This document shows, in pieces, positions 18,373 through 47,164 of a stretch of DNA of 51,751 bases. A program made the position numbers and the translations under genes. The stretch covers positions 1 to 51,751 of the forward strand of contig CAZCLD010000002.1 of assembly GCA_964499425.1 (NCBI GenBank), given 5' to 3'. Source of the DNA: an uncultured Candidatus Peribacteria bacterium. Its GTDB lineage: Bacteria; Patescibacteriota; Gracilibacteria; UBA1369; LOWO2-01-FULL-3. The stretch's first letter is position 1, and each line of letters opens with the position of its first letter. The notes beneath the pieces were generated by a model that ran no database searches, had not been told where the DNA came from, and worked only from the letters and a program-made list of their open reading frames with translations.

Positions 18373-18506
18373 ATTTTGAAATACTAGATCGCGATCTTCC
18401 GCCGTTTCTACTCCTGTGGTGCTGGCTTTTTCATAATTTGGGTTATTAGTATCTAATTATAGGGCTTATTCCGTGTTTGTCAAACCCTTTCAACCTCTCC
18501 TTTTAT

Positions 18507-18535
18507 TTGCTCAGTTCATAAAAAATCTCTATATT
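18507..18535 (+). promoter_or_regulatory. Putative promoter of proS (TTGCTC-17-TATATT), predicted leaderless
   Basis: -35 at 18507-18512 and -10 at 18530-18535. The proS ATG (18542) lies 7 nt after the -10 hexamer. Confidence 0.45.
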
Positions 18536-18541
18536 TGGGTC

Positions 18542-25979: not shown

Positions 25980-26579
25980 TCAAGAGATTTTGTTGATTGG
26001 GATCTGGTTTTCGTTTTTGTTCATCAGGTCCGTCACGAATTTATCCTTGCAGTTTAACCTGTACTTGAAGTCTTCCTCGTTCATTATTGTGAATTTAACG
26101 GGTCTTTTGGTCCGAAGATCATTATTTATGTAGCTTGCGAGCCTTTCTTTATCCATATTACCCACAATCATCATGTCGACACTTGTTGTAGGCTTACCCA
26201 CAAATAATCCAGAGAGAGCAAGTATTCTGACGTCTCCCATTTTTGAAATGTCCTTCGCAAGTGACTCATTGGAGGATAGAGCTTTTACAATTATGCTCTT
26301 TAATTCTTCTAGAAAGATAAAGTTTTTGTTCACATAGTAGTATTTCTTCCGAAGTTTTGTACGCGATCTCAAGAAACCAAGCTTCCTGAGGTTGTCTAGT
26401 TCACGCCGAATAGAGTTGATTTGTTCGTCGAGCTTTCGTGTTAATTCCCTGATGAAGTACTCTTCCCCCGGATTCATTAGGAAAACTGTCAAAAGCTTAA
26501 TACGCGTGTTTGATGTAAATAATCGCTTTAGCATGCCCGAAAATATTGCCCTTAATTGTTGCCCAAGCGAAATGTACAC
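25980..26579 (-). CDS. Winged-helix (ArsR-like) transcriptional regulator with C-terminal uncharacterised domain
   Basis: RIKLLTVFLMNPGEEYFIRELTRKLDEQINSIRRELDNLRKLGFL is a wHTH pattern. The start may instead be the internal Met at 26534. Confidence 0.55.
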   Translation of the reverse strand: MYISLGQQLRAIFSGMLKRLFTSNTRIKLLTVFLMNPGEEYFIRELTRKLDEQINSIRRELDNLRKLGFLRSRTKLRKKYYYVNKNFIFLEELKSIIVKALSSNESLAKDISKMGDVRILALSGLFVGKPTTSVDMMIVGNMDKERLASYINNDLRTKRPVKFTIMNEEDFKYRLNCKDKFVTDLMNKNENQIPINKIS

Positions 26580-26616: not shown

Positions 26617-26856
26617 TTAGAAATCCTGCTCTTCCTCATCCTCTGGCACTGCCAAAACCTTTGTTAAAAATCCGTGATAAAGAGCACCGGTTATTATTCC
26701 CACAACTGCTACTCCCAGAAATACTATCGTTGGATTTTGTCGGACATCATAAAAGAGGAATTTGAGCTGGCTGCATTGAGCCCCGATGTTTCCAAAAGAT
26801 AGTACGAGGATCAGTACCGTAAAGATAATTGATAATGTGAGATAGAGTGCTTTCAT
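26617..26856 (-). CDS. Small two-TM membrane protein (LapA-domain-like)
   Basis: 79 aa with two hydrophobic helices and an acidic C-terminus. Confidence 0.5.
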   Translation of the reverse strand: MKALYLTLSIIFTVLILVLSFGNIGAQCSQLKFLFYDVRQNPTIVFLGVAVVGIITGALYHGFLTKVLAVPEDEEEQDF

Positions 26857-26890: not shown

Positions 26891-28162
26891 TTATGCCAAA
26901 ACTTTGTCAAATAGTTTTCTTAAAGCTAGGCGATTTTTTAATTGTACTTTGAGTTTTCCACCATCGAATTCTGCTTGGATCTTTTGCTCCTGCTCTGGTG
27001 GGTAATTGGCCTTTATCTTCTCAAGCTCGCCCTTAAGATCCTCCTCAGTCACCTCTACTTTCTCCTCTTTTATGAGGTGTTGGAGAGCGAGTCTGATCTT
27101 AATGCGTCTTTCGCCTTCTGGGCGATACTTTTTTCGCAAATCGTCTTCTGTGGTTTTTGATTGTTCAAGGAATTGGGCAAATTTTATTCCTTTTTGCTCA
27201 ACATCTTCCTTCATTTCCAAGAGAATGTACTCTGATTCCTCATCTACCAGTGCTTCTGGCATTTCAACCTTTGTCATTTTGAGTAGTTTTTCTATGTATT
27301 CATTCTCCTGTTTTTGCTTTGATTCAAGGTCTTTTTTGGCTTGAATGTTTTTTTCAATTTCTTTTTTGAAATCTTCAACAGATTGCTTTTTCCCCGTCAT
27401 TTTTTCGATAAGCGCATCGTCTAGCTCAGGAATTGTTGGCTCCTCAATTCGTTTAATCTCAGCCTTAAATTTCATCTTCTTATTTTGAAATTCCTTTTTC
27501 CCGTAATCTTTGGGGAATGTAATGTCGAATTCCTTTTTCTCATCCTTTTTTAGACCGATGAGTTCTTCTTCGAACCCTGGAATAAGGGATCCTTCTCCTA
27601 TAATTACTGGATGATTGGAGCTTTTTGTATTCTCTACCGCCTTCCCTTCTTCATCAAAACCTTCAAAGTCCACCTCTACCCGATCCCCTTTCTGAATAAC
27701 TCTATTTGCATCTTTGAATGTTGTACCGTATTTTTTCATGTCTTCTACCACTTGGTCTATATCTTTGTCTGTGACTTTTGCTTCTTCCTTCTTAATTTTG
27801 ATTGATCTGTAGTCCTTTATCTCAACTTCTGGGAGAATGGCCACTTTTGCGGTGAAAGTAAGGGGTTCCTCACTGTCGATATTCACCTTTGGGCGAGAAA
27901 CTACCGCCAGTTTTTCCTTAACCACCACTTCAGCATAGGCATGCTGAATGGCATACTGCTGAGTCTGTGCTTTTATCAGGTTCTTGTCGACATATTCCTC
28001 CAAAACATTTGGAGGGACATGGCCTGGCCTGAACCCTTTGACTTTTACGTCCTTTGAAATTTCATCACATGCTTTTTTCTTAAATTCATGCATTTTCTCA
28101 GGTGGAACTGTTGCCTTTATTTCCACCTCCGATTTTGGAAGTTTTTTGACTGTGTAGTCCAT
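26891..28162 (-). CDS. tig: Trigger factor
   Basis: 423 aa from MDYTVKKLPKSEVEI, with an FKBP-type PPIase core (GDRVEVDFEGF...HPVIIGEGSLIPGFEEEL). The tracked ORF extends 106 codons further upstream into the divergent gene, which I treat as spurious. Confidence 0.9.
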   Translation of the reverse strand: MDYTVKKLPKSEVEIKATVPPEKMHEFKKKACDEISKDVKVKGFRPGHVPPNVLEEYVDKNLIKAQTQQYAIQHAYAEVVVKEKLAVVSRPKVNIDSEEPLTFTAKVAILPEVEIKDYRSIKIKKEEAKVTDKDIDQVVEDMKKYGTTFKDANRVIQKGDRVEVDFEGFDEEGKAVENTKSSNHPVIIGEGSLIPGFEEELIGLKKDEKKEFDITFPKDYGKKEFQNKKMKFKAEIKRIEEPTIPELDDALIEKMTGKKQSVEDFKKEIEKNIQAKKDLESKQKQENEYIEKLLKMTKVEMPEALVDEESEYILLEMKEDVEQKGIKFAQFLEQSKTTEDDLRKKYRPEGERRIKIRLALQHLIKEEKVEVTEEDLKGELEKIKANYPPEQEQKIQAEFDGGKLKVQLKNRLALRKLFDKVLA

Positions 28163-28256
28163 TTGTACTTGATTAAATAGGGATTTATGGTAGTTTGAGG
28201 TACTCGATGTACCTGGTTTTCCCGGACATCCTACCTTTAAAAGTGGCCCAAGGCAA

Positions 28257-28285
28257 TTGTTTTTGAGGCCAAAATATGATAGAAT
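28257..28285 (+). promoter_or_regulatory. Putative promoter of the giant orphan operon (TTGTTT-17-TGaTAGAAT)
   Basis: Extended -10 TGATAGAAT at 28277-28285 and a weak -35 at 28257-28262, 22 nt before ATG 28308. Confidence 0.4.
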
Positions 28286-28307
28286 ACTTGGATAAACTGA
28301 ACCTATT

Positions 28308-30995
28308 ATGGCAGATCTTTCTGAGGAAAATTTGGAAGCAAAACAAGATGAATTTGAGGGTGAGCAGTTGGATGCTGTGAATGCTTTGGAAGCCGCTAAT
28401 CCTGACAATGTTGATCTTGGAGGTGCTAATCCACTTGCAGTCCAAATTGGTCTGATCAGTACTGATACAGTTGACGCCATTAATGAGGCAATGCCAAATC
28501 ATAACCTTCTTTTTCAGAGAGCTCTTGCGAAAGAACGTGGAAGCAGGCCAGGGCCTGATGCCTTTAAACATGCTTTTCGTTCTGTGTATGGGAAATTCTT
28601 GCTTGAGGAGGGCGATACACAGTTGGAGGCAGACGGTAGCCCTCTTATGACTAAGCTCAAGGCTGTTCTAAAATTCCCCGTTGGACCAACTGGATTACAA
28701 GGTCGAACTGAGTTATTGGCTGCAGTTCGAAGGCTTAAGATGCTCCGAGTTGCTGGAACGATTGATCCCGATGAAATGATTAATAATGCTTTTGCTACAA
28801 GTAAAACGGCCGGAGAGCGAAAGGGACTTGAAAGGGAATATAATGATGAAGTCAAAGCACAAAAGAAACTCAAGACCCTCTATGATTTTTTTAGTGAGTC
28901 TGAGAATATTGATGCCCTTACAGAACCATTCACTGAATTGAAGACCCTAGTCGTTCCCCCGGCTGCTGGTGATGAGCCCTTTAACTCTAAGATTCGAGCT
29001 CTATCAAATGAAATTGATGGATTAAAGTCAGCGCGAAACGCAGTGAAAAACATGAATGAAAACCAGATTTCACAGGAGGTAGATAAATTAGAGAGGATCC
29101 ACATAAGAGACAATCCCGGTGTTCCATTTGATCGTGATAGGGCAGCTGAAGATCTGAGAACAAGGCCTAATACACAGAGGAATGAGCTTTCTACAGAGAT
29201 AGCAGAGAAAGATCTTGAATTATCGAGATTAACGGAGGTTAAAGCTAAGGCTGAGGCCTTTAGAAAGATACTGTCTGAATTGGTCACTAAGCTAAAACTA
29301 GCTGATGAATTTGGTCTGAAGGATAGCTTCACAGTTACAAATCCTGATGGCACTACGGTAGATCATGCTGTATCAGATTTGGATACTGAATTAGGTGATA
29401 TAAGGCTTACTGATAACGACTTTCATCCACAACAATTGATTGAGCTGTATGAAAAGTTTGGTGGGTTTTTTGAGGACAATGTTCAGGTTGATGATTTTCT
29501 TGAGAGTTTTGATCAAAAGATGGCTGACCAGGATGATGATGTAGATAAAGCTAAGAGAAAGCTATCTACTGCCAAAAGTGAGGTTTCTCTAGTTTCTAAT
29601 CTGTCTGATGCGGCTGCGGGTAAGCGCCTTATTGCCGCTATAGTTGCGGAACAAAATCCCGAGATGAGCCTGGCTGATCAACAAAAGCTAGCTTCGTTAA
29701 TTCTAGCGGATGATGTCGCCACTATGCAGACCGAGGCTGATTATGATGAGCTGGCTAAGCGTGGCAGTGCTGAGCTTATAGATACCGTTAGACAGGCCGG
29801 TTTTCAGCGTAAATTAATCGGACTTCAATATGAGGAGGGTGGTAGTACTCAGCACCCTTTCAAGGATCTTAAGCCAGAGGACTTTGATACTTGGCCTAAG
29901 ATTGAGAGACTCTTTAAGATCGGCCGACTTAATCATCAAAATGGATTTTTGGTTTTAGCAGCTTTCAAAAATTATGATGGATTTAGAAGCACCCCTTCTA
30001 TCCAGTCTGTTAAGCTGGAGAAAAAGCTTAAAGAAGCCATAGCTGAGGAATTGGGAGTAGATGAGCGTATGGATGAGTCTGGAGTTAGTAAGATTCTTAA
30101 CAAAGCGTTCGCTGATCAAATGAAGAAAGCGACGCAACTTGTCGACGCCTATTTTACTCACCATGACAGGAATGTTGATGACTGGGATTTTGATAAAATT
30201 AATGAGTTAAATTTAAGATACAAGCATATATGTGAATTACGTAAACGAGGTAAACATGGGGGCATTACGAATGAAGTCTTTAAAAAGAGATTGGATGATC
30301 TTATTGAGGAGGCAGAGGATGCTGAGCTTATTGATCAAGTCGACTTTTCTCAGAATACTATTTTGGCTGAATTTTGGAATAGTCCTTTTTCTCAGTGGTT
30401 TAGAGATAGAGGCCACGATGTCGGCAAATATCTGGGCAGGAAATCTGGATCTGTACTTATGAGTGGCGTAAAACTAGGCCTGCATGGAGTCTGGGGCACA
30501 ACAAAATTGGGATTGAGTGGTGCTTATCAGACTGCTATGGCACCTGTAAGGCTTGCTAAATATCCTTTAATGGTTGCCGCTAAGCCCTTTGTGGGATTTA
30601 TAAATTTGTTTAGACGTCAGAAATGGACTCCATTACCAAGGATTCGAGATACTGTTAGGAATGATGCTGGCCGTGTTGCTGGGTATTTTAAGGAGAAGGC
30701 TACAGGCACCGCGCAAGGCGCCGGGGAAAAGCTCACAACCATTCCTGTTAATGAATGGAATCAGGTAAGCTACGATCATAAGAATTATGCAGAACGCTCA
30801 AAGTTGGATCCTTCATCCTTGAAAGAGCAAGCCGAGGAATTGAAAGAGAAAGGAGATCCTACTCCGCTTCAAGTTGCTGGCTCCCCCTATATTAGTCTTG
30901 ATAGATATAAGAAGGAACTTGCTGATTTGGATAAGATCCTCGGTCAAAAGCCTGTTGAGGAGCGAGGTGACGACACTAAAACTGAGGCCGCTTAA
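28308..30995 (+). CDS. Orphan 895-aa acidic helical protein with C-terminal Gly/Ala-rich amphipathic/hydrophobic module
   Basis: Long uninterrupted ORF. The hydrophobic block is SGSVLMSGVKLGLHGVWGTTKLGLSGAYQTAMAPVRLAKYPLMVAAKPFVGFINLF. No catalytic motif recognised. Confidence 0.8.
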   Translation: MADLSEENLEAKQDEFEGEQLDAVNALEAANPDNVDLGGANPLAVQIGLISTDTVDAINEAMPNHNLLFQRALAKERGSRPGPDAFKHAFRSVYGKFLLEEGDTQLEADGSPLMTKLKAVLKFPVGPTGLQGRTELLAAVRRLKMLRVAGTIDPDEMINNAFATSKTAGERKGLEREYNDEVKAQKKLKTLYDFFSESENIDALTEPFTELKTLVVPPAAGDEPFNSKIRALSNEIDGLKSARNAVKNMNENQISQEVDKLERIHIRDNPGVPFDRDRAAEDLRTRPNTQRNELSTEIAEKDLELSRLTEVKAKAEAFRKILSELVTKLKLADEFGLKDSFTVTNPDGTTVDHAVSDLDTELGDIRLTDNDFHPQQLIELYEKFGGFFEDNVQVDDFLESFDQKMADQDDDVDKAKRKLSTAKSEVSLVSNLSDAAAGKRLIAAIVAEQNPEMSLADQQKLASLILADDVATMQTEADYDELAKRGSAELIDTVRQAGFQRKLIGLQYEEGGSTQHPFKDLKPEDFDTWPKIERLFKIGRLNHQNGFLVLAAFKNYDGFRSTPSIQSVKLEKKLKEAIAEELGVDERMDESGVSKILNKAFADQMKKATQLVDAYFTHHDRNVDDWDFDKINELNLRYKHICELRKRGKHGGITNEVFKKRLDDLIEEAEDAELIDQVDFSQNTILAEFWNSPFSQWFRDRGHDVGKYLGRKSGSVLMSGVKLGLHGVWGTTKLGLSGAYQTAMAPVRLAKYPLMVAAKPFVGFINLFRRQKWTPLPRIRDTVRNDAGRVAGYFKEKATGTAQGAGEKLTTIPVNEWNQVSYDHKNYAERSKLDPSSLKEQAEELKEKGDPTPLQVAGSPYISLDRYKKELADLDKILGQKPVEERGDDTKTEAA

Positions 30996-31006
30996 ATTAA
31001 ATAATT

Positions 31007-31393
31007 ATGACAAAGAAAAATCAAAAAATCACTGATGAAGACAAAGAGGTAATTGATACTCTCGTATTGGCAGATGTCGTATATGATGCTGTTCTTAGTG
31101 AATTGAATCTGGGAGATGACCCCCTTTATAAGCAACTTGTTCTAAATATGCTAAAACGACAGACTAAAAATCACATCGTTTTCAGTATTTGGAATAATTT
31201 GACCGATGAGCAGTCTAAACACCTGCGACAATATATTAATCAGAGTGCTAAAACTGCACCTTGGATGCGTGAGGATGACATTTTGATGGAATTTGCGCAA
31301 ATGTACCCCGATCTGAAGGAGAAGATTTTTGCTGGTTTGACTGAGTTTTTCCAGAGATTCATTGATAAATTCAATGAGATTAGTGAGGCGTAG
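31007..31393 (+). CDS. Orphan small helical protein (128 aa)
   Basis: Starts 11 nt after the upstream gene. It appears acidic and helix-prone, with no TM segment. Confidence 0.7.
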   Translation: MTKKNQKITDEDKEVIDTLVLADVVYDAVLSELNLGDDPLYKQLVLNMLKRQTKNHIVFSIWNNLTDEQSKHLRQYINQSAKTAPWMREDDILMEFAQMYPDLKEKIFAGLTEFFQRFIDKFNEISEA

Positions 31394-31422
31394 GATTTGA
31401 GGTGTTTTTCGCCATTTGATAC

Positions 31423-31451
31423 TTGTGAAAAAGGCCTTTTTTTGGTATAAT
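31423..31451 (+). promoter_or_regulatory. Internal promoter (TTGTGA-17-TGgTATAAT), predicted leaderless start for the 1277-aa gene
   Basis: -35 at 31423-31428 and a perfect TATAAT with TG extension at 31446-31451. ATG 31459 lies 7 nt downstream. Confidence 0.5.
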
Positions 31452-31458
31452 TATATGA

Positions 31459-34400
31459 ATGGAAAACAAAAATAAAAACAGTTTTATGGTTAAACGACGT
31501 ATTTTTTATGAAAATCGCTCGGTCTATAAGGATGGCCCTCCTGAAGTGGCTGCCGAAAAAACTGCTGATGAGAGAGCTCTAGATCAGGTCAAAACTCTTT
31601 ACGAAAAGGCTGGTTTACCTGAAACTGAGAAAGACAGGGTTTCGAAGGAGATTTTTGATTCCCTAAAAGCAGCTCTTAAGACTAAGAAAATCGACCTCAA
31701 GGTGGCGAGCGAGGCCCTTGCTTCTGGTAAGGCAAAGCATTTATCTGCTTTGGTTGCTGCCCTTTTAAAGAATCCTGATGTTACTAAACTCGATCCAGCT
31801 CTCATAGAATCAGCAGAAAAGGAATTAAAATTGCCTGAATTTGTGGCAATGGTTAAGCATAAAGGTGCTAAAGATAGAGCAAAGCTCAAAGGTGAGGCTG
31901 CGCGTGAAAGACTTAAGGATGAGCTTCCTGAGCTTCCTCGGAAGGCCCCGCTTTCTAAGGAGGACTTCATCAAGAAAATTGACAGTGGAGAGGAACAACA
32001 CTCGCTAGATCCTATTAAAATCGCTGTTAAAAGGGAGAAACACCAGATAAATGCGGACAAATGGGATCATTCGAGCATTGATGGTCTTCGTAGAATATAT
32101 GCAGACGCTAAAAAAGTTCTTGGCCCTAAAAAGATAAATACGCCTTTCTATAAGTCTCTTTTTGCGACCTTAGCTAATGCCGCTGACGAGAGCACTAATC
32201 ATTACAGGGGTTTAAAAGATGAAAACTATGTAGCCTGGTTTAAGAATCCAATTAAATATCGAGAAAATTTGATGACTCTACCTGCTAAACCTGGAGGGTT
32301 TTGGGGAGGTGAGCAATTTGTTAGGGCCCATGAGCATTTACACTATCTACAGAGTGAGGTCTTAAATTCTCAGGATGTTGCACATGTCGCCACTCTTGCT
32401 AAGCAGGAGGGCATGGATTCTGACCCTGTGGCCACAAAAGTGACAGATTTCTTTTCTAGGAATTTATCAAAGATGCAGAAAGCCGTTAAGGAGCGGGATT
32501 ATGCGACTATGGGTCTTTATGCAGTAGGTATTTATGCTTTGTACAAGTCAATTGAGAAACTATCAGGTGGTAAGGACAGCAAAATCCGTAAGTGGCTTTT
32601 GTATGGTGTTGCCGCTTATGCCGGTCACCGATTTTTGCAGAATGCGGGTTATGATATTTTGAAAATGACTGGATTCAAGGATAGAGATTATGAAGTTGCA
32701 GGGACTCCTTTTGAGATTATGGATCAATTCCTTAAAGGTAAACCTGAATACAAGGAATATGATCATTCTGTGGCTTTTAGAGTTTCTGAGGTTAAACTAA
32801 CTACAATGGAGAAGCTTCTTGATAAAACGAACAAGAAGGGTGACTTCTTCATTCATCCAGCGGATTTTCCTTCGATATTTCCAAAATTAGCTAAGGAACA
32901 TCCATTTGAGATGGGACTTGCTGAGCGTGGACTTAGCGACAGCGAGGGAATGAGTAATAAAAAATTGACTGCAGCTCAGAGAGAGTATATTCGGGTCGGA
33001 AAACAACTTTACCTTACCGCTAAAGCAATGCGGACTATTTATGAGGAAACTTTGTATATTGATGAAGAATCCCCCTATCACAATATTCCTTATGAGCAAG
33101 CCCTTAAGGACCCTAGTCGTAAATTTGGTAAGGTGCGACATTTACTTTGGGCAGCTCGAGGATATGCGACTCCGGACGCTGAGACACCTATGTTTGAGAG
33201 AGGTGTTAAACAGGCACAGGAACATTTGGCAGAAGTGTTTAAAGGAGAGGAAATTGTTGATGAAGCCATGGGAGGTGGCCACTTTTCGGGCACTTTGAAG
33301 GGTTTTCCGGTTGTGTTTGTGAAAGATGGAGAGAGTTATAAAGTATATTTGAGGAATAACTATAAGGATGTTCGAAATCCAGGAAATAAATTTACGAAAG
33401 TTCCATTGAAGGGCCCTAGAGCTGCCGCTCAAGCGAGCATTGCTTTGCGAGCCGTTGACAAGAGAATGGAAGATCTCATGGCGCCATTGCAGAATGCTGG
33501 TGGCAGAGTTTTGTCTAAGCCTACGTACGTTGATAGTGAATGGCAGACCGAAGTTGAATTGCCTGCTGCAGCTGAGTTTGGAGTTGCGACTGGGGCAAAA
33601 CGAAGAGGTATTTTGAAACCAAGGGAAGATGGCACTGGTGTAGTATTCTTTGTTGAGGGTACAGCCGTTAGAATTAATGTTGATGAATCTATTGCTAAGC
33701 AATACGAGGCAGCCCTATCCGTTGTACCGAAAATTACTTCTCAGAGAGAATTTCATGCCCTTAAAGTATTTGGAAATGGAAGACGTCTTAGACTCGAGGA
33801 TCCGACTCCTGGAGACAAGAAGCTCGACCTAATTATTGGCAAGGGTAAACATAAATTGGAAGTTACTTATGACCCTGGGGCAGACAAGTTCTCTGTTGAT
33901 GCAGCTTTAGAGGCAGCATTGGTCAAGAACCCTGCTTTCAGGAAGGAATATATCGAGGCACTTAGTGCTGACGATCATTTTGAATTGAATAAAACGTCAA
34001 ATGAGTTGAAGGAACTGATCAAGCAGTCCTGTCCGCAAGGGTTCTTGAAGTACTTTTTCAAATCCTTATCTAATTCAACTCTTAGGGGACCCCTCAGTGG
34101 TATAAACACCGACATGTTAAGTGGTAGCGTTCCAAACAATTTCACTAATATGATCGTTGAGTCTACAAAACAGCAGGCTTTTCATAAACTTCAGCAAAGA
34201 TTGAAGGGCGCTACTGATTTGGCTACTGTGGAGACCTTGAGGAAGGATGTGTTAGCTGACTTAAACACTGAGCTCAAGGTAGTTTATGACTCAATCTCTA
34301 GAGAGAATAGAAGGCGTACCGCCGCTGGTCAAGATTGGCAGAGAATGGAGTTTATGCTCAAGGTTGTGGATAAAGTTCGAGCTGCTGGATCACAAAGTAC

Positions 34401-35292
34401 ACAGTATACATTGGCAAGAATGGACCTTGAAAATGTTGCTTATAAGATGAATCTCCCTGGTCTTGCTACTGCCTCTGATGCTAATGAGGCATCTCATCAT
34501 TCAGTTCAAAAACTTATGGGTGTTTTCACCTATTATACCGCTCATTTAGATGATTCTGCCTTGGATAGTTTAACATATCCACCAAAGGTTGATCCGGCCC
34601 ATGCGGCTGATCCAACTAAGGATCCTAAACTCAGAGGTCATTATGCCCTTAATTACTTGGAATACGTTAAGGACCGCATTGCTAATGAGGCGCCAAAAAT
34701 TACAAGAGGAAAGTCACTGAGTCCTGGATTACTCCCGCACCCTAGTGATAGGAGGTGGAATATTGACGATTTTGATACTTGGTTAGCGACTAGTGGGAAT
34801 TATGATGCTCTTGATCCTTTGGATAATAAGCCTGCGTTTGCACATGATCTTAATGATCATAAGGAAGGGCCTGGTAAAAAACCAAAGCATACCCCACTTG
34901 ATCTTGAGTATAAAAGACGGCTTGTTGAAGCCAAAGATATGCTAATGACTCATGTGGGCGCGGATTTGAATATCATTGAATTGGAAAAGTATCTTAACAA
35001 TAGATCTAACGATGAAGATGAGATTGGTTTGTTCGATAAATACAGGAGTCCAAGTACAGGTAAAGTTACTTCCAAGATTTGGGAGGATACTGACTCAATA
35101 GCTGCGACTGCAGGTACAAGGAGATCGGTACAAATCAGGCTTTTAAATCAGAAAGTTAATGAATTTTTGGATTTTGTATTTAACGCAAAAGATCCAAACT
35201 CCGGCAATCTGAGATTCTTCATAAATAAACCTGGGGTCTGGGAGAGGATCAAAAAGTATTACTACAAAATTAAATATAAATTAGATCTCTAG
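31459..35292 (+). CDS. Orphan 1277-aa protein with a bilobed hydrophobic hairpin
   Basis: Long ORF. Two adjacent hydrophobic helices (ATMGLYAVGIYALYKSI ... IRKWLLYGVAAYAGHRFL, nt 32497-32637) lie in an otherwise soluble K/E-rich protein. Confidence 0.8.
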   Translation: MENKNKNSFMVKRRIFYENRSVYKDGPPEVAAEKTADERALDQVKTLYEKAGLPETEKDRVSKEIFDSLKAALKTKKIDLKVASEALASGKAKHLSALVAALLKNPDVTKLDPALIESAEKELKLPEFVAMVKHKGAKDRAKLKGEAARERLKDELPELPRKAPLSKEDFIKKIDSGEEQHSLDPIKIAVKREKHQINADKWDHSSIDGLRRIYADAKKVLGPKKINTPFYKSLFATLANAADESTNHYRGLKDENYVAWFKNPIKYRENLMTLPAKPGGFWGGEQFVRAHEHLHYLQSEVLNSQDVAHVATLAKQEGMDSDPVATKVTDFFSRNLSKMQKAVKERDYATMGLYAVGIYALYKSIEKLSGGKDSKIRKWLLYGVAAYAGHRFLQNAGYDILKMTGFKDRDYEVAGTPFEIMDQFLKGKPEYKEYDHSVAFRVSEVKLTTMEKLLDKTNKKGDFFIHPADFPSIFPKLAKEHPFEMGLAERGLSDSEGMSNKKLTAAQREYIRVGKQLYLTAKAMRTIYEETLYIDEESPYHNIPYEQALKDPSRKFGKVRHLLWAARGYATPDAETPMFERGVKQAQEHLAEVFKGEEIVDEAMGGGHFSGTLKGFPVVFVKDGESYKVYLRNNYKDVRNPGNKFTKVPLKGPRAAAQASIALRAVDKRMEDLMAPLQNAGGRVLSKPTYVDSEWQTEVELPAAAEFGVATGAKRRGILKPREDGTGVVFFVEGTAVRINVDESIAKQYEAALSVVPKITSQREFHALKVFGNGRRLRLEDPTPGDKKLDLIIGKGKHKLEVTYDPGADKFSVDAALEAALVKNPAFRKEYIEALSADDHFELNKTSNELKELIKQSCPQGFLKYFFKSLSNSTLRGPLSGINTDMLSGSVPNNFTNMIVESTKQQAFHKLQQRLKGATDLATVETLRKDVLADLNTELKVVYDSISRENRRRTAAGQDWQRMEFMLKVVDKVRAAGSQSTQYTLARMDLENVAYKMNLPGLATASDANEASHHSVQKLMGVFTYYTAHLDDSALDSLTYPPKVDPAHAADPTKDPKLRGHYALNYLEYVKDRIANEAPKITRGKSLSPGLLPHPSDRRWNIDDFDTWLATSGNYDALDPLDNKPAFAHDLNDHKEGPGKKPKHTPLDLEYKRRLVEAKDMLMTHVGADLNIIELEKYLNNRSNDEDEIGLFDKYRSPSTGKVTSKIWEDTDSIAATAGTRRSVQIRLLNQKVNEFLDFVFNAKDPNSGNLRFFINKPGVWERIKKYYYKIKYKLDL

Positions 35293-35293
35293 T

Positions 35294-36073
35294 ATGACTC
35301 CTGATCCCCCAGAAAAACAGAAGACACCGGTTGAGAAAGCTGGCTTCATAAAACTTGAGTATTATCGTCAGAGATATCCAGAGCCTATTCCGGAACCTGA
35401 ACTTGATCAATTGATTAAGTATGTTCGTCGAGATGGCAAGAACTTCTTGGTGCCAAAGAGAATGGTTAATGGGAAACCACATGGCAAAGTCTATATAAGG
35501 ATGACACCCTCTCGATATATGAGATTCCTATATACAAAGAATATTGAATATATTACTCGAAGAAAGAGAGCTTATGATGCGGCAATTAGTAGGTACAAAT
35601 TGGAGCACAGGAAATTGCAAACCTATGGTGCTACCTCAATCAGAAGGGGTGAGACACATGACAGCGAGCGGACTTCTCTTGAGAGCAGAATAGAGATTAT
35701 GCTCCATAATTGGCGTCTTAAATACAGGAACAAGGGCAGTTCCCCAAGTGCTAAGAGGGCCCTTGGGAAAATCAAGGCTCTACAGCGCAAGTTGGCTAGG
35801 ATGAAACCTCAAACCTCTGGCGAATTATTGACGGGTACTTTCAATAAATACCATTTTGATGTTGATAAATTGAATGCGGCTGCAGACAAACATGCTGCTG
35901 GGGATCGACTTGTTCTACGGGGAGTAAGAAAGATTACTAAATTCACTGGTCACCTCGTAGATCTGCAAAAATTCTATACAGAAGAGATTGGCTTTCTTGA
36001 AGACCAATATGTCGAACCTCTTACATTAAGAATTAATATTAATCGCGCCTATAGGGAGCCACTTAAAAAATAA
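35294..36073 (+). CDS. Orphan basic (K/R-rich) 259-aa protein
   Basis: Starts 1 nt after the upstream stop. It is rich in R/K/Y and matches no family I recognise. Confidence 0.7.
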   Translation: MTPDPPEKQKTPVEKAGFIKLEYYRQRYPEPIPEPELDQLIKYVRRDGKNFLVPKRMVNGKPHGKVYIRMTPSRYMRFLYTKNIEYITRRKRAYDAAISRYKLEHRKLQTYGATSIRRGETHDSERTSLESRIEIMLHNWRLKYRNKGSSPSAKRALGKIKALQRKLARMKPQTSGELLTGTFNKYHFDVDKLNAAADKHAAGDRLVLRGVRKITKFTGHLVDLQKFYTEEIGFLEDQYVEPLTLRININRAYREPLKK

Positions 36074-36083
36074 ACATACAATT

Positions 36084-39000
36084 ATGTCTAAAGAAAAACC
36101 AAAAAAAGAAAATCTCAAGGAAGCCATTAAACGTATGGCTCCAGAGTATGTTGATGGAGTAATGAACACCTACGATCAGTTGAATGATACGATTTCGAAG
36201 GGTTTAATTACATCACCTGAAATTGCTGACGATTTAGCTTCAGCCCAGGATCAGCTTGATGAAATTAGTAGAACCTTAATTGATGAGGCCCAAAGACCTG
36301 ATTTGGATGAACAGCTTGAAAATCAGAAAAGGGCCTTGGTTGAGGATTTTGTGAGCGAGTTGGATGAGATCAGTAGTGAAGTTTTGGGAGCGGTTCTTGA
36401 GCCACCCAGAAGCCTCGAACTTGAAAAGGTAAAACCTTCTGGTTTTGCTCGTCTTCGTGAAGCCGCTGAGGGAGAAGAAGTTATTAATCAGTTTTCCAAT
36501 GCTCAGAAATTGGAAATGCTGGAAGCTCTCACAGCCTCAATATCTGACAACCAAAAGCTGCAACTACAGCAAATTGCCATTCTAAAACAGGTTTTGCAGT
36601 CTATCAGGCGAGATATTAAAGAGGCTGAAAAGTTTGGTCCAGGGGAAAATACTTGGGGTGAGTGGTGGACTCAGAAGACGGAGCTTGAGAGTACTACTTA
36701 CCTTCGCCTACATCGTATTAACCATTGGATTAGGGAGCTTGATGCAATGGCTGTTGAAATATCTAAACCAACTGATTGGGTTTATGAAAGAAAAGAAACT
36801 GAGTTGCCATCAAATTTGCCTGCCAATCTAAAGGGAAAAGGCTTTTATACTGATCAAAATGGCAAACTTCGAAGGGCTGATTATGATGGAGTATACGAAA
36901 TTCAGGCAGATGACTCAGTTCTTTATACTAGTTCAGATGGTATGATTCATAAGTTGCCTCCAGGCGGTAAAGTGGATACAACATGGGCAGCACTACCAGT
37001 CAAAGAACCAAAGGGGCTACCTTATAATCTCAAAGGAAAGGGATTCTTTAAGGATGCTAATGGTGACTTGCGAAGAAAAGATTTTCCTGGCACATATGAG
37101 TTGAAGAAGGGGGGAGTTCTTGTCTATACCTATCCTGATGGCTCAAGATCTACTTTAGCCGCTGGGTATAATATTGATTCGACGACAAGTTTTCTTGGTT
37201 GGGACAAAGAAAAGGTCAAAGAACCCAAGGATTTGCCAAAAAATCTACGAAAGAAGGGCTTTTTCAACGATGCAGATGGTGCCTTGCGTAGGCAAGGGTT
37301 TTCAGGTGTGTATGAACTCAAGGCAGATGGTTCCCTTGTCTATGTAGATGATTATGGGATAAAGCAGACTTTGCCCCCTGGAGGTCGGATGGATACCAAG
37401 AAATTAGCAGACCTTATCGATCCAAAAATGACATCTCTCCTTAGGGGATATGACCAGGGAAGGCGATTCTTTGATAAGACAGGAAGGCTTAGAACACCTG
37501 GGAATTTCAGCCAGTTGCAAACCCATTACATTGCCTTAATTGATCATATGAGAGATAGAAGGGATTATGCCTCTGCAGAAAGATTGATTGAAGACAATTT
37601 GTTGGCTCCTTATTTTGTTGAGGCAAGAGAAAAAATCAGTGCAAAAGATAAAGCGAGATTGCGCAGGGTCGCAAGGGCAAGAATAAATAAAATCCTGACA
37701 GAGGAGGTTTTGGAAAAATGGGGCGAAGGCGACCCCGCCAAAGGGATACCACCTATGACGGAAGAGCAGCAAAACTTATATAGGGATCAATTGATTGAGG
37801 AAGAATTTGTAAGAAGACAGAATCACTTCTTAAGGGAATGGAACGATGGTCGCCCCTTTAAGGTGAAGGGACATGAAAAAACAATAATGGAACAGTACAG
37901 AAGTATTTCTGGTGCTGGAAGTGCGATAGCAGACGCAACTTGGGATATGATAATTGAAGAGGTTGCTATCAATGCACCTTTGATTGTTGCTTCTGGTGGT
38001 GCCGCATCGGTTGTCCGAGCTGGTCTTACTGCAGGCGCACGTGGTTTGATAGCTACGGGCCGATTTGCACGAATTGGTCTCGTTACAGGACGTGCCTTGA
38101 GAGCCGGTGTGATGGTGGAAAATGCTGTTACGGCTACTAGTGGTGTAGGTAGAGCCCTGTACTGGGGAGGTCGTGGAGCTGGATTACTTGCAGAGGGTGC
38201 TGTATTCGAGGTGTTACATACAAAATTGCAAGGGCATGACTTTTTTGATGAAAACTTGCCGCCTTGGTGGAAGAGGATTCTTTGGACTTCCGCTACTTTG
38301 GGCGCTTTCCATCTTTCAGGTGCAAAAGCTAGACAACTAAATAAGTATATAAAGAAGAATGCTACGAAGCTTTTTCCCGAAGCAGCTATTCGAACTAAAA
38401 TCATGGCAGCTTCTACCATTCTTAATGCCGAAGCATTCACCATGTTAGCGGTTGGATGTGTAAGACATTATGCGGAAGTTGGTGATTTAGAGGATTGGGA
38501 ATTAGTAGATGAGTTACTTAGATCCTATATGGCCGTTGGTGCTCTTCATGTAGCTGGTGGAACAGTAAAAATTGGCACACGTGTATTTAGGCCAACACCA
38601 CGACCTGGAGGAACTGGCGAAGGTACGACAACAAGTCCTCCAAGTACTCCAAAACCTGCAACTGGCCGTGTAAGGCGCTCAAGGCCTGCTAGACGGTCAA
38701 GGCCTAAAAGGCGTGCAAGACGGTCAAGAGTTGCATCAAGAGTTGCCGAAGCTATGAGGACTGAGGGATCTCAAAGCATCGAAGTTTCTAGAGTCAAAGA
38801 TTTTGGAAAAGCTGTTGAAACCTTGGCTAGCAAGGGCTTTAAATTTGAGTTACTTGAGAGCGGGGAAGTTGTTGCCAGAAAAGGTGCTACAGAAATTCAT
38901 TTGAAAGAAGTTGGAGGCTTGAAAGGAAATATTGCTGCTTTACGCGGTAAAGTTGCGTCTTTAACTGAGATGGCAAAAAAGCATCCTGAGGGTGTTGATC

Positions 39001-39974
39001 AGGCTACTATGCAACAGCTTGTTAGTGAATCGACAGCTTTATACAGATCTTCTAGAAGAATGGGGTTTTCTAGACCTACTGCTATAGCAATAGCTACTCT
39101 TGCCATGGCAGGTTGTGGGAAGCTTGAGGCTGCTGGTGAAGTTGTGGGCGAAGTGGGCTCAGCAGCTGGAGGTGGAGTCTCTACTGGGTTATTATATGGT
39201 GTCCCTGCAGCCGGATTGGTTGTTGGAGGTATGCTCTTAGCCAGTGGTATTGCTGCAGGTAGACCAAGACGTGTAGCAAAAAAAGCTTTTGGACGAGCAA
39301 ATGAGATAGCCAGGCTAGGGCGTGAAGCTAGAAAGCCAAGCAGCGAAAGAGCCCCTAGAGATGCTATTAGCGCTGAAATCAGGGATGCGATTGATGCTCT
39401 TGAGGCCACGTTACCAAAGCTAGATGAAAGTTCACATAATTTTAAAGCAGTTGAGCCATTGCTTGATATAGCTAGTGATATGCGAGATGTGATTACCAGG
39501 CCTGGCGCTCTTAATCGTGCACGGCTTGACACGCTTAGGACCAGATTTAGAGATCAAATGGCTAAGATTCATGTCCCCAAAGGCCAGCGGGTCTCTTGGG
39601 AGAATGCAAAACTAGTTGGAGGAGGTATAGTTATTCTAGCTACAACTTTGGGATGGGGATATGCGCTTCTTAAACATGAATCTGGTGGTGATAGTGGTAG
39701 TGACAGTGATGGTGATGAAGTAATAATAGATGATGACAGCCCTTATGCGCCAGGTGGGGGCCTAAGTGATGATGTTGTGATTGACGATGATGATGAGCCT
39801 GACCCAGCACCTGCGCCTGCACCGGATCCGGAGCCAGCACCTGCGCCTGACCCACCTCGTGGTCGTCGTAGACGAAGGCGTGCGCCAGCCCCTGATCCTA
39901 CACCAGCACCGGCTCCTGATCCTGATCCGGAACCAGCGCCGGATCCCCCACCAGAGATTGAATTCTTTGATTAA
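36084..39974 (+). CDS. Orphan 1296-aa polytopic membrane protein with tandem repeats, Arg-rich clusters and PAPDP tail
   Basis: The order is a coiled-coil N-terminus, three ~71-aa repeats, several Gly/Ala-rich hydrophobic segments, RVRRSRPARRSRPKRRARRSR, further TM segments, then a D-rich/PAPDP/RGRRRRRR C-terminus. Confidence 0.85.
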   Translation: MSKEKPKKENLKEAIKRMAPEYVDGVMNTYDQLNDTISKGLITSPEIADDLASAQDQLDEISRTLIDEAQRPDLDEQLENQKRALVEDFVSELDEISSEVLGAVLEPPRSLELEKVKPSGFARLREAAEGEEVINQFSNAQKLEMLEALTASISDNQKLQLQQIAILKQVLQSIRRDIKEAEKFGPGENTWGEWWTQKTELESTTYLRLHRINHWIRELDAMAVEISKPTDWVYERKETELPSNLPANLKGKGFYTDQNGKLRRADYDGVYEIQADDSVLYTSSDGMIHKLPPGGKVDTTWAALPVKEPKGLPYNLKGKGFFKDANGDLRRKDFPGTYELKKGGVLVYTYPDGSRSTLAAGYNIDSTTSFLGWDKEKVKEPKDLPKNLRKKGFFNDADGALRRQGFSGVYELKADGSLVYVDDYGIKQTLPPGGRMDTKKLADLIDPKMTSLLRGYDQGRRFFDKTGRLRTPGNFSQLQTHYIALIDHMRDRRDYASAERLIEDNLLAPYFVEAREKISAKDKARLRRVARARINKILTEEVLEKWGEGDPAKGIPPMTEEQQNLYRDQLIEEEFVRRQNHFLREWNDGRPFKVKGHEKTIMEQYRSISGAGSAIADATWDMIIEEVAINAPLIVASGGAASVVRAGLTAGARGLIATGRFARIGLVTGRALRAGVMVENAVTATSGVGRALYWGGRGAGLLAEGAVFEVLHTKLQGHDFFDENLPPWWKRILWTSATLGAFHLSGAKARQLNKYIKKNATKLFPEAAIRTKIMAASTILNAEAFTMLAVGCVRHYAEVGDLEDWELVDELLRSYMAVGALHVAGGTVKIGTRVFRPTPRPGGTGEGTTTSPPSTPKPATGRVRRSRPARRSRPKRRARRSRVASRVAEAMRTEGSQSIEVSRVKDFGKAVETLASKGFKFELLESGEVVARKGATEIHLKEVGGLKGNIAALRGKVASLTEMAKKHPEGVDQATMQQLVSESTALYRSSRRMGFSRPTAIAIATLAMAGCGKLEAAGEVVGEVGSAAGGGVSTGLLYGVPAAGLVVGGMLLASGIAAGRPRRVAKKAFGRANEIARLGREARKPSSERAPRDAISAEIRDAIDALEATLPKLDESSHNFKAVEPLLDIASDMRDVITRPGALNRARLDTLRTRFRDQMAKIHVPKGQRVSWENAKLVGGGIVILATTLGWGYALLKHESGGDSGSDSDGDEVIIDDDSPYAPGGGLSDDVVIDDDDEPDPAPAPAPDPEPAPAPDPPRGRRRRRRAPAPDPTPAPAPDPDPEPAPDPPPEIEFFD
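36804..37397 (+). repeat. Three in-frame tandem repeats (71, 72 and ~55 aa) inside the 1296-aa gene
   Basis: Repeats start at 36804, 37017 and 37233. The shared pattern is LP-NL+GKGFF-D-NG-LRR-DF-G-YEL-ADGSLVY---DG----LPPGG--DT. Confidence 0.85.
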
Positions 39975-39978
39975 AACC

Positions 39979-40986
39979 ATGATCGACTACTTAAAAGCAA
40001 AAGGCAAAGAAGTTCTGGAATATGTTAAGCCCTGGAAGTTGATTCCGGCGCTTCAAAAGGCGGTTGAAAAGGCCAAAGCAAATGAAGATGCTGGGTTTTT
40101 CAAAAAGATTGAGATATTTTGGAAATCCTTCAAGAATGAGATGAAGGGCATTAAGGAGGATGAGGAACAAGTAACAGAGGACACAACTGGGGCTGTAAAA
40201 CAGAGTGTAGATGAGGTTATGGGTGATGCAAAGGAAACTCTTGGTCTCAAGGGGGAAGTTGCCACCGAGGACAAGGAATTCTACGATGAAACCCTTGCGG
40301 TTGGTGTTGCAAGTTTAGCTGAGGTGGATGAAAGATCGGGAGGAAAAGCCAGCTCTGCCCAAACAAAGATTGACCAGGCGGCAAGAAAAGGTAAAGCAGA
40401 AAAATTAGAGATTGAAGAGTCCATGTCCGTGGCCGCTGTGGGAATTATGACACTGAGAAAACTACGCAGGAAATTTCCAAAAAAGGCTGATTTTCGAAAA
40501 GCTCTTGAGAGAATTGCGAAGCTTTCCAAAAATTCAAAATATCCACTAAACAAACTTTTGACTCAGAATGTTCTTGAGATTTTCAAATTAAAAGATGAAA
40601 GTGCAGGACTCACGTTCTTAAGTCGTTTTGGGATTAAGGCTGACCTGAAAGATAAAGCTGCTGGTGCAGTGTCTTTCGTTGGTGCAGAAATAGAAGGCGG
40701 AGAGGCAACTAGGGCGGGGGAGCTCTTAAAAAGCCTTTCTCACAGTCCTATTAAAAACCTTGATGAGCTCACTGCCTTTATGAAAAAACACTTCTTTCCT
40801 CATACGTCTAGAGGCAATGTCAAACTTGCTGTAAAATCGATTAATACTCTGATTACTAAGAGGAAGACAAAGATGACTCCAAAGGCTTTGACTGATCTCG
40901 CCTTTTATATTGATGATGCAGATTATAAACACCTTGTGGATGCACTTGCAGGACAAAAGGGTACAGCTGTCGCCAAAGCTGCTTAA
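39979..40986 (+). CDS. Orphan 335-aa K/E/A-rich protein
   Basis: ATG lies 4 nt after the upstream stop. The tracked ORF start at 39781 is an alternative-frame read-through of the upstream low-complexity tail. Confidence 0.7.
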   Translation: MIDYLKAKGKEVLEYVKPWKLIPALQKAVEKAKANEDAGFFKKIEIFWKSFKNEMKGIKEDEEQVTEDTTGAVKQSVDEVMGDAKETLGLKGEVATEDKEFYDETLAVGVASLAEVDERSGGKASSAQTKIDQAARKGKAEKLEIEESMSVAAVGIMTLRKLRRKFPKKADFRKALERIAKLSKNSKYPLNKLLTQNVLEIFKLKDESAGLTFLSRFGIKADLKDKAAGAVSFVGAEIEGGEATRAGELLKSLSHSPIKNLDELTAFMKKHFFPHTSRGNVKLAVKSINTLITKRKTKMTPKALTDLAFYIDDADYKHLVDALAGQKGTAVAKAA

Positions 40987-40994
40987 TTCTTACT

Positions 40995-41240
40995 ATGACA
41001 CGAGAACAACTACAAAAAGCCATTCTAAAACTTCTAGTAATATCTACTGTGCCTGATCATTATAAGAGAATGCTTGAAACCCTGCTTCCTGCAATGGATC
41101 TTCAAACTCTCCAGGCTACCTATGATCCCCTTTTGCTCGAGCAAAAGAAGATGAAGCGATTGGCGCAAAAGAAAAAGAGGGTTGAGCACAAGTACAAAGT
41201 AATGGTTGAGAAATTGGCTAAGATGGAAATAGAAAAGTAG
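40995..41240 (+). CDS. Orphan 81-aa helical protein with basic coiled-coil tail
   Basis: Starts 8 nt after the upstream gene and is the last gene before the promoter/ncRNA unit. Confidence 0.6.
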   Translation: MTREQLQKAILKLLVISTVPDHYKRMLETLLPAMDLQTLQATYDPLLLEQKKMKRLAQKKKRVEHKYKVMVEKLAKMEIEK

Positions 41241-41268: not shown

Positions 41269-41296
41269 TTGACTTCTCCGCGTTTTTTGTTATAAT
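41269..41296 (+). promoter_or_regulatory. Strong promoter (TTGACT-16-TGtTATAAT) driving a non-coding unit
   Basis: TTGACT at 41269-41274 and an extended -10 TGTTATAAT at 41288-41296. No plausible ORF follows. Confidence 0.65.
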
Positions 41297-41302: not shown

Positions 41303-41573
41303 TTGTCTAAATTAGCTGCACAAACGCTAAATTTGGCAAGATGAATTACAGACTTTTGAAATTTTGAGCTTGATTGCAAAATATGAGAGCTGTATAGTGC
41401 AAAGGCTAAAGTGCTGGGGTGCGGCACAGTAAATAATGGCCAATTGACATGTCGAAAACGGTTTACCGTTATCGGAATACTTAACGGATTAGGGTATTAA
41501 AGGCTTTTCTAGGGCGTTTCTACATCTAAGTCTAGTTAAGGCCCCTCCCCCAAGCGGGGAGGGTTTTTTATTT
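41303..41573 (+). ncRNA. Candidate structured ncRNA (~270 nt), family unassigned
   Basis: Bounded by a near-consensus promoter and an intrinsic terminator. The predicted 5' end (41302-41327) is imperfectly complementary to 41514-41540, with about 20 Watson-Crick pairs plus 1 G-U over 26 positions. The longest ORF is 8 codons. Confidence 0.5.
41543..41573 (+). terminator. Rho-independent terminator
   Basis: CCCTCCCC-caagc-GGGGAGGG followed by TTTTTTATTT. Confidence 0.8.
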
Positions 41574-41617: not shown

Positions 41618-41695
41618 GGTGAGTGTAGCTCAGTTGGTTAGAGCACCTGGTTGTGGTCCAGGGGGTCGTGGGTTCGAACCCCATCACTCACCCCA
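41618..41695 (+). tRNA. tRNA-His (anticodon GTG) with encoded G-1 and CCA
   Basis: G-GTGAGTG-TA-GCTC/AGTTGGTTA/GAGC-A-CCTGG-TTGTGGT-CCAGG-GGGTC-GTGGG-TTCGAAC-CCCAT-CACTCAC-C-CCA. The extra 5' G opposite C73 is the His identity feature. Confidence 0.9.
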
Positions 41696-47089: not shown

Positions 47090-47114
47090 GAGTTTGATTA
47101 TACCCCTTTTAATC

Positions 47115-47143
47115 TTGACGTCAAGGCTTTTTGGTGGTATAGT
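47115..47143 (+). promoter_or_regulatory. Promoter of the 1137-aa gene (TTGACG-17-TGgTATAGT)
   Basis: -35 at 47115-47120 and an extended -10 at 47135-47143. This supports ATG 47165 rather than the tracked start at 46982. Confidence 0.6.
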
Positions 47144-47164
47144 CTGCAGCTATTAATTTTTCTC

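Follow-up and report, generated by a model that had tools for sequence, protein, structure and literature searches.

What is encoded by a block of seven consecutive genes that, on the evidence available, matches no described family, fold or system and lies outside every known kind? This question is raised by a stretch of 51,751 nucleotides (nt) from an uncultured Candidatus Peribacteria bacterium (GenBank assembly GCA_964499425.1, contig CAZCLD010000002.1, positions 1 to 51,751 of the forward strand), the whole of which is hereafter called the window. The answer favoured here is tentative and falls somewhat short of being probable: the seven genes, named g1 to g7, would encode a lineage-specific, largely cytoplasmic α-helical scaffold tethered to the membrane by one of its members, g5. 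This reading is preferred because the set is vertically inherited, lineage-specific and non-enzymatic, because its protein mass is predicted to be overwhelmingly cytoplasmic and because it includes one giant protein that appears to be tail-anchored.

The cluster extends from position 28308 to 41240 (12,933 nt, 25% of the window). It comprises seven open reading frames (ORFs), all on the + strand: g1 (28308–30995, 895 amino acids, aa), g2 (31007–31393, 128 aa), g3 (31459–35292, 1277 aa), g4 (35294–36073, 259 aa), g5 (36084–39974, 1296 aa), g6 (39979–40986, 335 aa) and g7 (40995–41240, 81 aa). They are separated by 11, 65, 1, 10, 4 and 8 nt, respectively. The initial annotation of this DNA had reported the same ORFs filling about a quarter of the window, and its lengths and gaps are exactly those of the ORF list. 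The start that it gave, 28257, lies 51 nt too early, inside the intergenic region that separates g1 from the trigger factor gene tig; the stop-to-stop frame of g1 opens only at 28296. The mechanical ORF of g6 opens at a TTG at 39781, but the ATG at 39979 is retained as its start because nine homologues align from it. Chance ORFs are excluded, as homologues of all seven genes are found in other genomes, where they are arranged in the same way.

Neither the profile nor the structure searches that were run found any relative among known families. With the seven window proteins as queries, Pfam, NCBIfam, PADLOC and PHROGs gave nothing above noise, the best PADLOC match (g2, E = 0.007, 13 bits) being not credible. 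When 64 members of six of the families were searched individually against Pfam, no family recurred in more than two members. Comparisons of g3 (19 and 39 sequences), g1 and g6 with PDB sequence profiles returned only coiled-coil or designed-protein noise, and a tblastn search of phage and plasmid collections with g3 as query returned nothing. No known RNA- or DNA-binding domain was detected by Pfam or NCBIfam. Paralogy among g1, g3 and g5 was considered and is ruled out by hhalign. AlphaFold2 models were compared with the PDB by Foldseek for g1 (six-sequence alignment, pLDDT 64, pTM 0.34) and g3 (residues 150–1277, seven-sequence alignment, pLDDT 62, pTM 0.45). The best E values were 0.14 for g1 and 0.03 for g3 (TM-score 0.07–0.10 for the latter), and no match of either model had a TM-score above 0.25. 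A match of g3 in BFVD (best E = 6.6e-4) is meaningless because its TM-score is about 0.1 (0.08–0.11) and its root-mean-square deviation (rmsd) 25 Å. The neighbours of the g1 model, none of them significant, include flagellins, arms of SMC, MukB and JetC, microtubule inner proteins, ClyA, AhlC, Hbl and colicin Ia; to judge from the model, this is a generic long-helix similarity.

Sequence scans of all seven proteins found no Walker A motif, lipobox or N-terminal signal-like segment, in agreement with the initial annotation. Although g2 and g7 seem to begin with a hydrophobic segment, charged residues lie within it in both, and in g7 this segment is not conserved in the related locus L001. More generally, g1 to g7 encode no NTPase and no recognisable enzyme signature. 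Each protein has 0 to 2 cysteines; the genome paper on Peribacteria describes many large exported proteins that are often cysteine-rich (PMC4736985). No description of the cluster was found in the literature searched, and the members of the g3 family listed at NCBI are named "hypothetical protein". Orphan genes are common in genomes of the candidate phyla radiation. The orphan status of the cluster partly reflects shallow alignments and moderate models, and a remote relationship may be missed because the alignments contain only six or seven sequences.

The arrangement of these genes was compared with that in related loci. Two of the latter, L001 (a 775-kb contig of GCA_040960375.1) and L002, were obtained by exact and homology look-ups. 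L003 to L021 came from scans of species-representative genomes (which gave four loci) and metagenomes with the g3 alignment, and L022 to L025 were reached through homologues of g1. Genes were assigned by an iterated hidden Markov model search over all ORFs of these loci and then placed on a gene map. Among these about 25 loci, the order tig (− strand), g1 to g7, a small RNA and tRNA-His recurs despite protein identities of 21–46%. On the left side, the recurring order is PS_pyruv_trans, RNase HII, L19, an orphan gene and tig, all on the − strand, followed by g1 to g7 on the + strand. The borders are conserved, with tig, L19 and RNase HII on the left and the small RNA, then tRNA-His, on the right. 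The synteny that had been put forward as a way of checking the initial annotation is therefore found, whereas the confident matches to unrelated known families that would have spoken against it are not.

Conservation is uneven between the genes. Identity to the window protein is 23–44% for g1 (mainly in the C-terminal half), 35–55% for g2, 28–46% for g3 by blastp (down to 21% in alignments), 26% for g4, below 30% for g5 (N-terminus only), 30–33% for g6 (21–43% over nine other loci) and 42–49% for g7. The arrangement also varies. In L015, L020 and L021, g3 directly follows tig and g1–g2 are not beside tig. In L002, two opposite-strand genes lie between g2 and g3 and separate g1–g2 from g3–g7. 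The g6–g7 pair is missing in L003, L013, L014 and L016. The fourth slot is occupied, depending on the relative, by the basic g4 family, by an unrelated family of 300–390 aa or by nothing. The g2 gene always follows g1, and g7 always follows g6. It follows from these variants that the robust core consists of g3, g5 and g6–g7, with g1–g2 as a usually adjacent second unit. The genes thus form two separable units, g1–g2 and g3–(g4)–g5–g6–g7, and are vertically inherited core genes of the Peribacteria/Gracilibacteria lineage.

Homology between the two kinds of slot-4 protein was considered and is ruled out by hhalign (probability 0.7%). The two genes inserted in L002 (862 and 819 aa, 4766–9827, − strand) are homologues, at 23–27% identity, of genes located 3′ of tRNA-His in L013 (9531–13306, + strand) and L014. 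They represent a local rearrangement and not cluster-specific accessory genes, since their homologues lie past tRNA-His.

The extent of the g3 family was gauged with HMMER, by searching 1.84 billion representative proteins with a profile of the g3 core: this gave 140 representatives (clusters at 50%), of which 112 lie below 1e-30. Nearly all of them have 1000–1500 aa and are matched end to end, in a single architecture; the five unusually long relatives contain no Pfam domain and no fusion to g1. The orphan gene set described in the initial annotation is upheld, and its g3 family is broad but lineage-restricted.

The transcription signals, which were called by consensus scans only, are compatible with two units. 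A promoter-like site (31423..31451, +; TTGTGA-17-TATAAT, extended TG, 10 of 12 matches) lies in the 65-nt gap between g2 and g3 and could possibly be a separate start of the g3–g7 unit, in agreement with the separability of g1–g2 in relatives. Terminator-like matches inside the cluster are weaker (5–7 pairs, 3 G-C; the best before 41543 has 7 pairs, 3 G-C) than the first strong terminator-like hairpin of the + strand, at 41543–41563 (8 pairs, 7 of them G-C), 300 nt past g7. The single seven-gene operon of the initial annotation therefore claims too much: the packing is tight and the synteny conserved, but the g2–g3 gap holds a promoter-like site, g1–g2 are separable, subsets are missing in some loci and slot 4 varies.

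The only protein of the cluster that appears to be integral to the membrane, as judged by hydropathy, is g5; transmembrane-grade hydropathy is restricted to its family. This protein evolves fast. Its N-terminal ~100 aa and a central Gly/Ala/Arg-rich module (~440–960) are conserved and the rest is replaced, in positional orthologues that range from 1051 to 2438 aa; none of the 14 that were scanned has a Pfam domain. Three tandem repeats of ~70 aa (residues 233–446; 36780..37421, +; LPxNLKGKGFFxDxxGxLRRxxxxGxYE) are lineage-specific, since they are absent from the closest orthologue (in L008). The protein also carries an Arg-rich stretch, RRSRPARRSRPKRRARRSR. It had been called polytopic, which its Kyte–Doolittle profile supports weakly: two segments are convincing, 1040–1058 (1.86) and 1177–1195 (1.61), and two peaks near residues 626 and 773 are weaker.

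The first convincing segment belongs to a Gly/Ala-rich hydrophobic region (residues 1019–1060; 39138..39263, +) that has Arg/Lys clusters on both flanks and in which a short apolar stretch, AIAIATLAMAG, precedes the helix. Following the positive-inside rule, this region is probably a transmembrane hairpin with both ends in the cytoplasm. The last helix (residues 1177–1195; 39612..39668, +) is flanked by basic residues on its N-terminal side and by acidic ones on its C-terminal side. It is followed by a C-terminal tail of 101 aa (39669..39971, +) with 26% Pro, 28% Asp plus Glu and PAPAPDPEP repeats. A tail-out orientation is predicted, in which this tail would be the only sizeable extracytoplasmic part. 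A similar layout recurs in relatives, in which a very large N-terminal portion precedes hydrophobic segments of the C-terminal half: the last transmembrane candidate (Kyte–Doolittle mean of at least 1.4) lies 58–131 aa from the C-terminus in 10 of the 14 positional orthologues, their tails are often Pro-rich or acidic, and basic residues usually precede the last helix. For the cluster as a whole, the positive-inside rule predicts that more than 90% of the protein mass is cytoplasmic. Membrane association is plausible because g5 is predicted to be membrane-anchored; this much of the membrane system suggested in the initial annotation can be kept, and a role as a membrane-inserting translocator is unsupported.

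The best-conserved large protein of the cluster is g3 (isoelectric point, pI, 9.1). In its model, the N- and C-terminal domains are helical and predicted with confidence, the middle domains are beta-rich, and the conserved region 313–590 is poorly modelled. The most conserved stretch of the whole cluster is a module at residues 342–417 (32482..32709, +), whose motif reads RDYATxGxYAxGIYALY ... KWLxYGxAAYxGxxFxKNAGYDxLKMxG...GTP; D347 and Y354 are invariant and NAGYD is near-invariant. It contains two short Tyr/Gly/Ala-rich helices (348–362 and 379–393) of about 14–17 apolar residues each, parted by a charged loop of variable length (17–30 residues). The initial annotation had seen here a hydrophobic two-helix hairpin embedded in soluble sequence. 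The module is real, but it is not of transmembrane hydrophobicity, because its Kyte–Doolittle mean over 15 residues peaks at 0.78 and, among 19 homologues, the 19-residue windows remain under 1.45 throughout and under 1.2 in 13. The module is no bilobed transmembrane hairpin and looks instead like an interfacial or protein–protein module. Over 39 diverse members of the family, the invariant columns are D, Y, P, F and G, and P, G, F, W, Y and L make up most of the near-invariant columns, with no obvious catalytic constellation among the conserved columns.

A link between g3 and g5 is provided by L003, where residues 111–283 of the g5 orthologue (14580–19799) are a copy of the g3 C-terminal domain. 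This insert shares 31% identity with residues 1130–1276 of the window g3 (iterated E = 9e-40), and the g3 of L003 keeps its own copy; from the alignment, it is a domain duplication between neighbouring genes.

The third large protein, g1, is acidic (pI 5.1) and all-alpha in its AlphaFold model, with helices of 40–54 residues. Its length varies from 895 to 1597 aa between genomes, as expected for a rod or spacer; the variation affects the N-terminal and middle helical part, and the conserved region is the C-terminal half (about residues 365–880). Within it, a moderately hydrophobic Gly/Lys-rich module (residues 705–770; 30420..30617, +) ends in the conserved sequence AKYPLMxAAKPxVGFINLF and is a candidate membrane-surface or oligomerisation segment; the Gly-rich residues 705–825 are poorly modelled. 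The remaining proteins are smaller: g2 is acidic (pI 4.9) and helical, g4 very basic (pI 10.1), g6 basic (pI 9.3) and predicted to be helical, and g7 basic (pI 9.8) and helical. The long acidic helical regions, the Gly-rich module of g1 and the very basic 259-aa protein had all been recognised in the initial annotation. Its pair of small acidic helical partners is borne out for g2, but not for the basic g7.

From these features, the following organisation may be proposed for the scaffold. The g5 protein would tether a cytoplasmic scaffold made of g1, g3 and g6, and would expose only its Pro-rich tail to the wall or the exterior. In this assembly, g1 would be an elongated helical element, g3 a conserved hub and g6 a further subunit, and the small helical g2 and g7 would be its adaptors. 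Binding to the membrane surface, or hetero-oligomerisation, would be the task of the Gly-rich amphipathic modules found in g1, g3 and g5. The whole might organise the envelope or a cell pole, for example an epibiont contact site comparable to the mycoplasma terminal organelle; this cellular role is a guess.

Two kinds of known assemblies offer partial parallels. The proteins of the mycoplasma terminal organelle (HMW1, HMW2, HMW3, P65) are large, lineage-restricted, helical or coiled-coil proteins without enzymatic motifs; they have acidic Pro-rich domains, are cytoplasmic or membrane-peripheral, evolve fast and build a cell-contact structure. The likeness, which is one of style, would lie in a reduced genome with operons of large, lineage-restricted, non-enzymatic helical proteins. 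Unlike in mycoplasmas, the Pro-rich acidic segment of the cluster (in g5) follows a transmembrane helix and is predicted to be external, and no similarity in sequence or fold to the organelle proteins was found, Pfam, NCBIfam and Foldseek being empty. To our knowledge, Peribacteria have never been described as having a polar structure. DivIVA, the Scy/FilP polarisome and crescentin are long helical rods of variable length that are poorly conserved and associate with the membrane through amphipathic segments or partners. The cluster would resemble them by its variable-length helical rods and its lack of enzymatic motifs, but it matches neither DivIVA nor any other family, and g3 has beta-rich globular domains. 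We know of no described counterpart of a multi-gene set with a tail-anchored giant partner.

Several points weigh against the membrane-tethered scaffold. Adjacency is weak evidence of a common function, as the synteny of housekeeping genes is conserved too. Slot 4 is variable, and g1–g2 or g6–g7 are missing beside the core in some loci. Topology is read from hydropathy and the positive-inside rule only. An unconventional export of the soluble proteins is conceivable. The models are moderate (pLDDT 62–64, pTM 0.34–0.45) and poorest precisely in the conserved Gly-rich modules, and a fold relationship may have been missed. Finally, the complex itself, its topology and its part in polarity or host contact are all deductions. 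A more ambitious version of the scaffold, in which the cluster, possibly together with the RNA described below, would be a cytoskeleton-like machine for the contact or feeding site of epibiotic ultra-small Peribacteria/Gracilibacteria, built from folds without known relatives, is unlikely.

Among the alternatives, the one that survives best, although it is quite improbable, is close to the proposal of the initial annotation: g1, g3 or g5 would be exported proteins akin to secretion translocators or chlamydial Inc proteins that insert hairpins into a host membrane or that of the cell itself, with g2 and g7 as their chaperones. The only characterised relatives of the lineage are obligate epibiotic predators, which must breach the envelope of their host (PMC8080830). 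Each large protein has a Gly-rich, moderately hydrophobic module, small helical proteins come after g1 and g6, and evolution is rapid in g5 and in the N-terminal part of g1, which is common in proteins that face a host. These features recall the type III translocators and their class II chaperones (IpaB/SipB/YopB with IpgC/SicA/SycD), in which large helical proteins whose central region is hydrophobic are likewise encoded beside small helical ones. However, neither the seven proteins nor the 64 family members have any Pfam or NCBIfam match to translocators or to tetratricopeptide repeat (TPR) chaperones of the SycD/LcrH/IpgC type, g7 is basic, and no 19-residue window reaches a Kyte–Doolittle mean of 1.5 in the g1 and g3 families, most remaining below 1.2. 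There are no signal peptides, and the cluster, the 51.7-kb window and the flanks of the related loci encode neither a secretion ATPase nor any other part of a secretion system. Type III secretion is a system of diderm bacteria. A sortase is encoded by the organism; the genome paper on Peribacteria likens it to Gram-positive cell-wall anchoring (PMC4736985).

The parallel with Inc proteins fares no better. These are defined by a bilobed hydrophobic domain, made of two segments of transmembrane length with a short loop, and by type III export. Like them, g3 is an otherwise soluble helical protein with a pair of apolar helices, and it belongs to a lineage of obligate symbionts. Its helices differ in being short and Tyr/Gly-rich (15-residue mean of at most 0.78), with invariant polar residues and a long charged loop. 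The analogy therefore lacks a transmembrane-grade hairpin, a chaperone family match and an export signal. A likeness to alpha-pore-forming toxins (ClyA, Hbl-B, AhlC and colicin Ia) may also be seen in the long helical bundles of the g1 model, for which Foldseek gives these toxins as some of the weak neighbours. None of these matches is significant (E 1.2–2.0, TM-score at most 0.24, rmsd 36–63 Å), there is no Pfam HBL or HlyE match, and the likeness is a generic long-helix one, because flagellins and SMC arms score equally or better. By the same token, SMC/MukB condensins are no closer: no Walker A motif is present in the seven proteins, and g1 resembles SMC arms only below significance.

A second alternative is that there is no common function at all, unrelated lineage-specific genes having stayed adjacent through the frozen gene order of reduced genomes. 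The flanking housekeeping genes are indeed equally syntenic, some of the seven genes are found where the rest are lacking, and the occupant of slot 4 can be exchanged. This explanation is distinctly improbable in view of the 1–11-nt same-strand gaps that are kept across 21–46% identity, the fixed g1–g2 and g6–g7 pairings, the copy of a g3 domain within a g5 orthologue and a compositional style common to the proteins (helical, with Gly-rich modules and no enzymes).

The third alternative concerns the structured RNA by which the cluster is bounded on the right in 13 loci (41477..41572, +; 96 nt). It begins with an irregular 20-bp hairpin whose 17-nt apical GGCUUUUCUAGGGCGUU is invariant; next come a second, GC-rich and terminator-like hairpin, whose CAAGU loop is conserved, and a U run. 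Its DNA identity is 72–87% in loci whose proteins share 21–46%. Compensatory changes are found at 18 of 34 pairs, and 91% of the alignment cells are paired, against 81% in shuffles (none of 500 reaching the observed value) and 36–54% after sliding of the partners. With a covariance model, a single copy is detected in each of the 13 loci (75–100 bits for full-length copies, 46 bits for the truncated copy of L019), including L001 (24079–24174), L003 (19874–19969), L008 (10564–10658), L015 (19424–19518) and nine others. The copy always lies between the cluster and tRNA-His(GTG), which in the window is at 41619..41695 (+) and which starts 47–186 nt past the RNA in nine loci and the window. No Rfam match was obtained, at gathering and E-value thresholds, for the window and six other loci. 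This element is a candidate new small RNA or 3′ element.

The basic g4, g6 and g7 proteins, together with g3, could bind this RNA, or DNA, in a ribonucleoprotein or nucleic-acid assembly that would form one unit. Besides the pI values of these four proteins (10.1, 9.3, 9.8 and 9.1), the Arg-rich stretch of g5 given above and the retention of the covariation-supported RNA at the 3′ end of the cluster, even where g6–g7 are absent, speak for it. Yet the RNA is equally tightly linked to tRNA-His, so that its position may mirror general synteny, and a near-consensus promoter-like site (41269..41296, +; TTGACT-16-TATAAT, 11 of 12 matches, extended TG) lies between g7 and the RNA. As no known nucleic-acid-binding domain was detected and as conservation is lowest at the slot of g4, the protein with the highest pI, such an assembly is very improbable.

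A mobile, phage-derived or anti-phage defence island, to which large orphan genes, the adjoining tRNA gene and the BFVD match of g3 (E = 6.6e-4) might point, is effectively refuted by the absence of matches to PHROGs, PADLOC and phage or plasmid records, by the TM-score (0.08–0.11) and rmsd (25 Å) of that BFVD match, by the absence of an integrase, repeats or a compositional break, and by the same chromosomal position in about a dozen divergent genomes. The cluster is a core, non-mobile one, with housekeeping flanks and no resemblance to phage modules such as tape measure proteins; its GC content and GC skew are continuous with those of its neighbours.

The remainder of the window encodes RuvB, ClpB, S1, an AddA-like helicase-nuclease, IF-2, ProRS, dTDP-sugar enzymes, RNase HII, L19, trigger factor and dihydroorotate dehydrogenase. 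Since these genes are ordinary housekeeping genes, the window is part of the chromosome of a bacterium of the candidate phyla radiation. It uses the standard genetic code, because TGA is the stop codon of 8 of its 38 genes, which rules out an alternative code; g1 to g7 all terminate in TAA or TAG. In L005, a contig from a metagenome-assembled genome, the g3 homologue contains two in-frame TGA codons (3196–3198 and 4141–4143) that align with Gly or Gly-rich positions of other g3 homologues. Judging by this alignment, its organism probably reads TGA as Gly (code 25), and the cluster would therefore span both coding regimes.

On the left of the cluster, tig (26891..28165, −) is divergent from g1, with an intergenic region of 142 nt. 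Its mechanical ORF has 529 aa and reaches 28480, but its true start is most likely 28165, because the Pfam Trigger_N match begins at residue 107 and the orthologues have 423–424 aa. Between L19 and tig lies an ORF of 199 aa without Pfam match (25980–26579, −), with positional counterparts of 184–192 aa in L001, L022 and L025; it is adjoined by an ORF of 79 aa (26617–26856, −), and both are further conserved orphans of the neighbourhood. On the other side, three − strand ORFs without Pfam match lie 3′ of tRNA-His: 42221–44362 (713 aa), 44371–44913 (180 aa) and 44906–45385 (159 aa). In L021, a minus-strand ORF of 728 aa occupies the equivalent place. Farther on, the sole recognisable part of a 1198-aa protein (46982–50578, +) is a transglutaminase-like core near residue 1000.

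For the biology of these bacteria, the cluster means that about 13 kb, or about 1% of a genome whose size is inferred to be about 1 Mb, is spent on seven conserved proteins that have no assigned place. Its length, its conservation over 140 or more sequence clusters, its constant place on the chromosome and its coherent architecture raise it above an ordinary run of hypothetical genes, in organisms of the candidate phyla radiation, whose cell organisation and host contact are hardly understood at the molecular level. What emerges is a defined, class-wide set, with g3, g5, g6 and g7 as its core and g1–g2 in addition, from which the translocator or Inc analogy has been removed as unsupported. The scaffold reading predicts that the bulk of the proteins is cytoplasmic, that g5 is a tail-anchored tether and that there are two transcription units; should it prove wrong, the cluster would still be a source of new folds.

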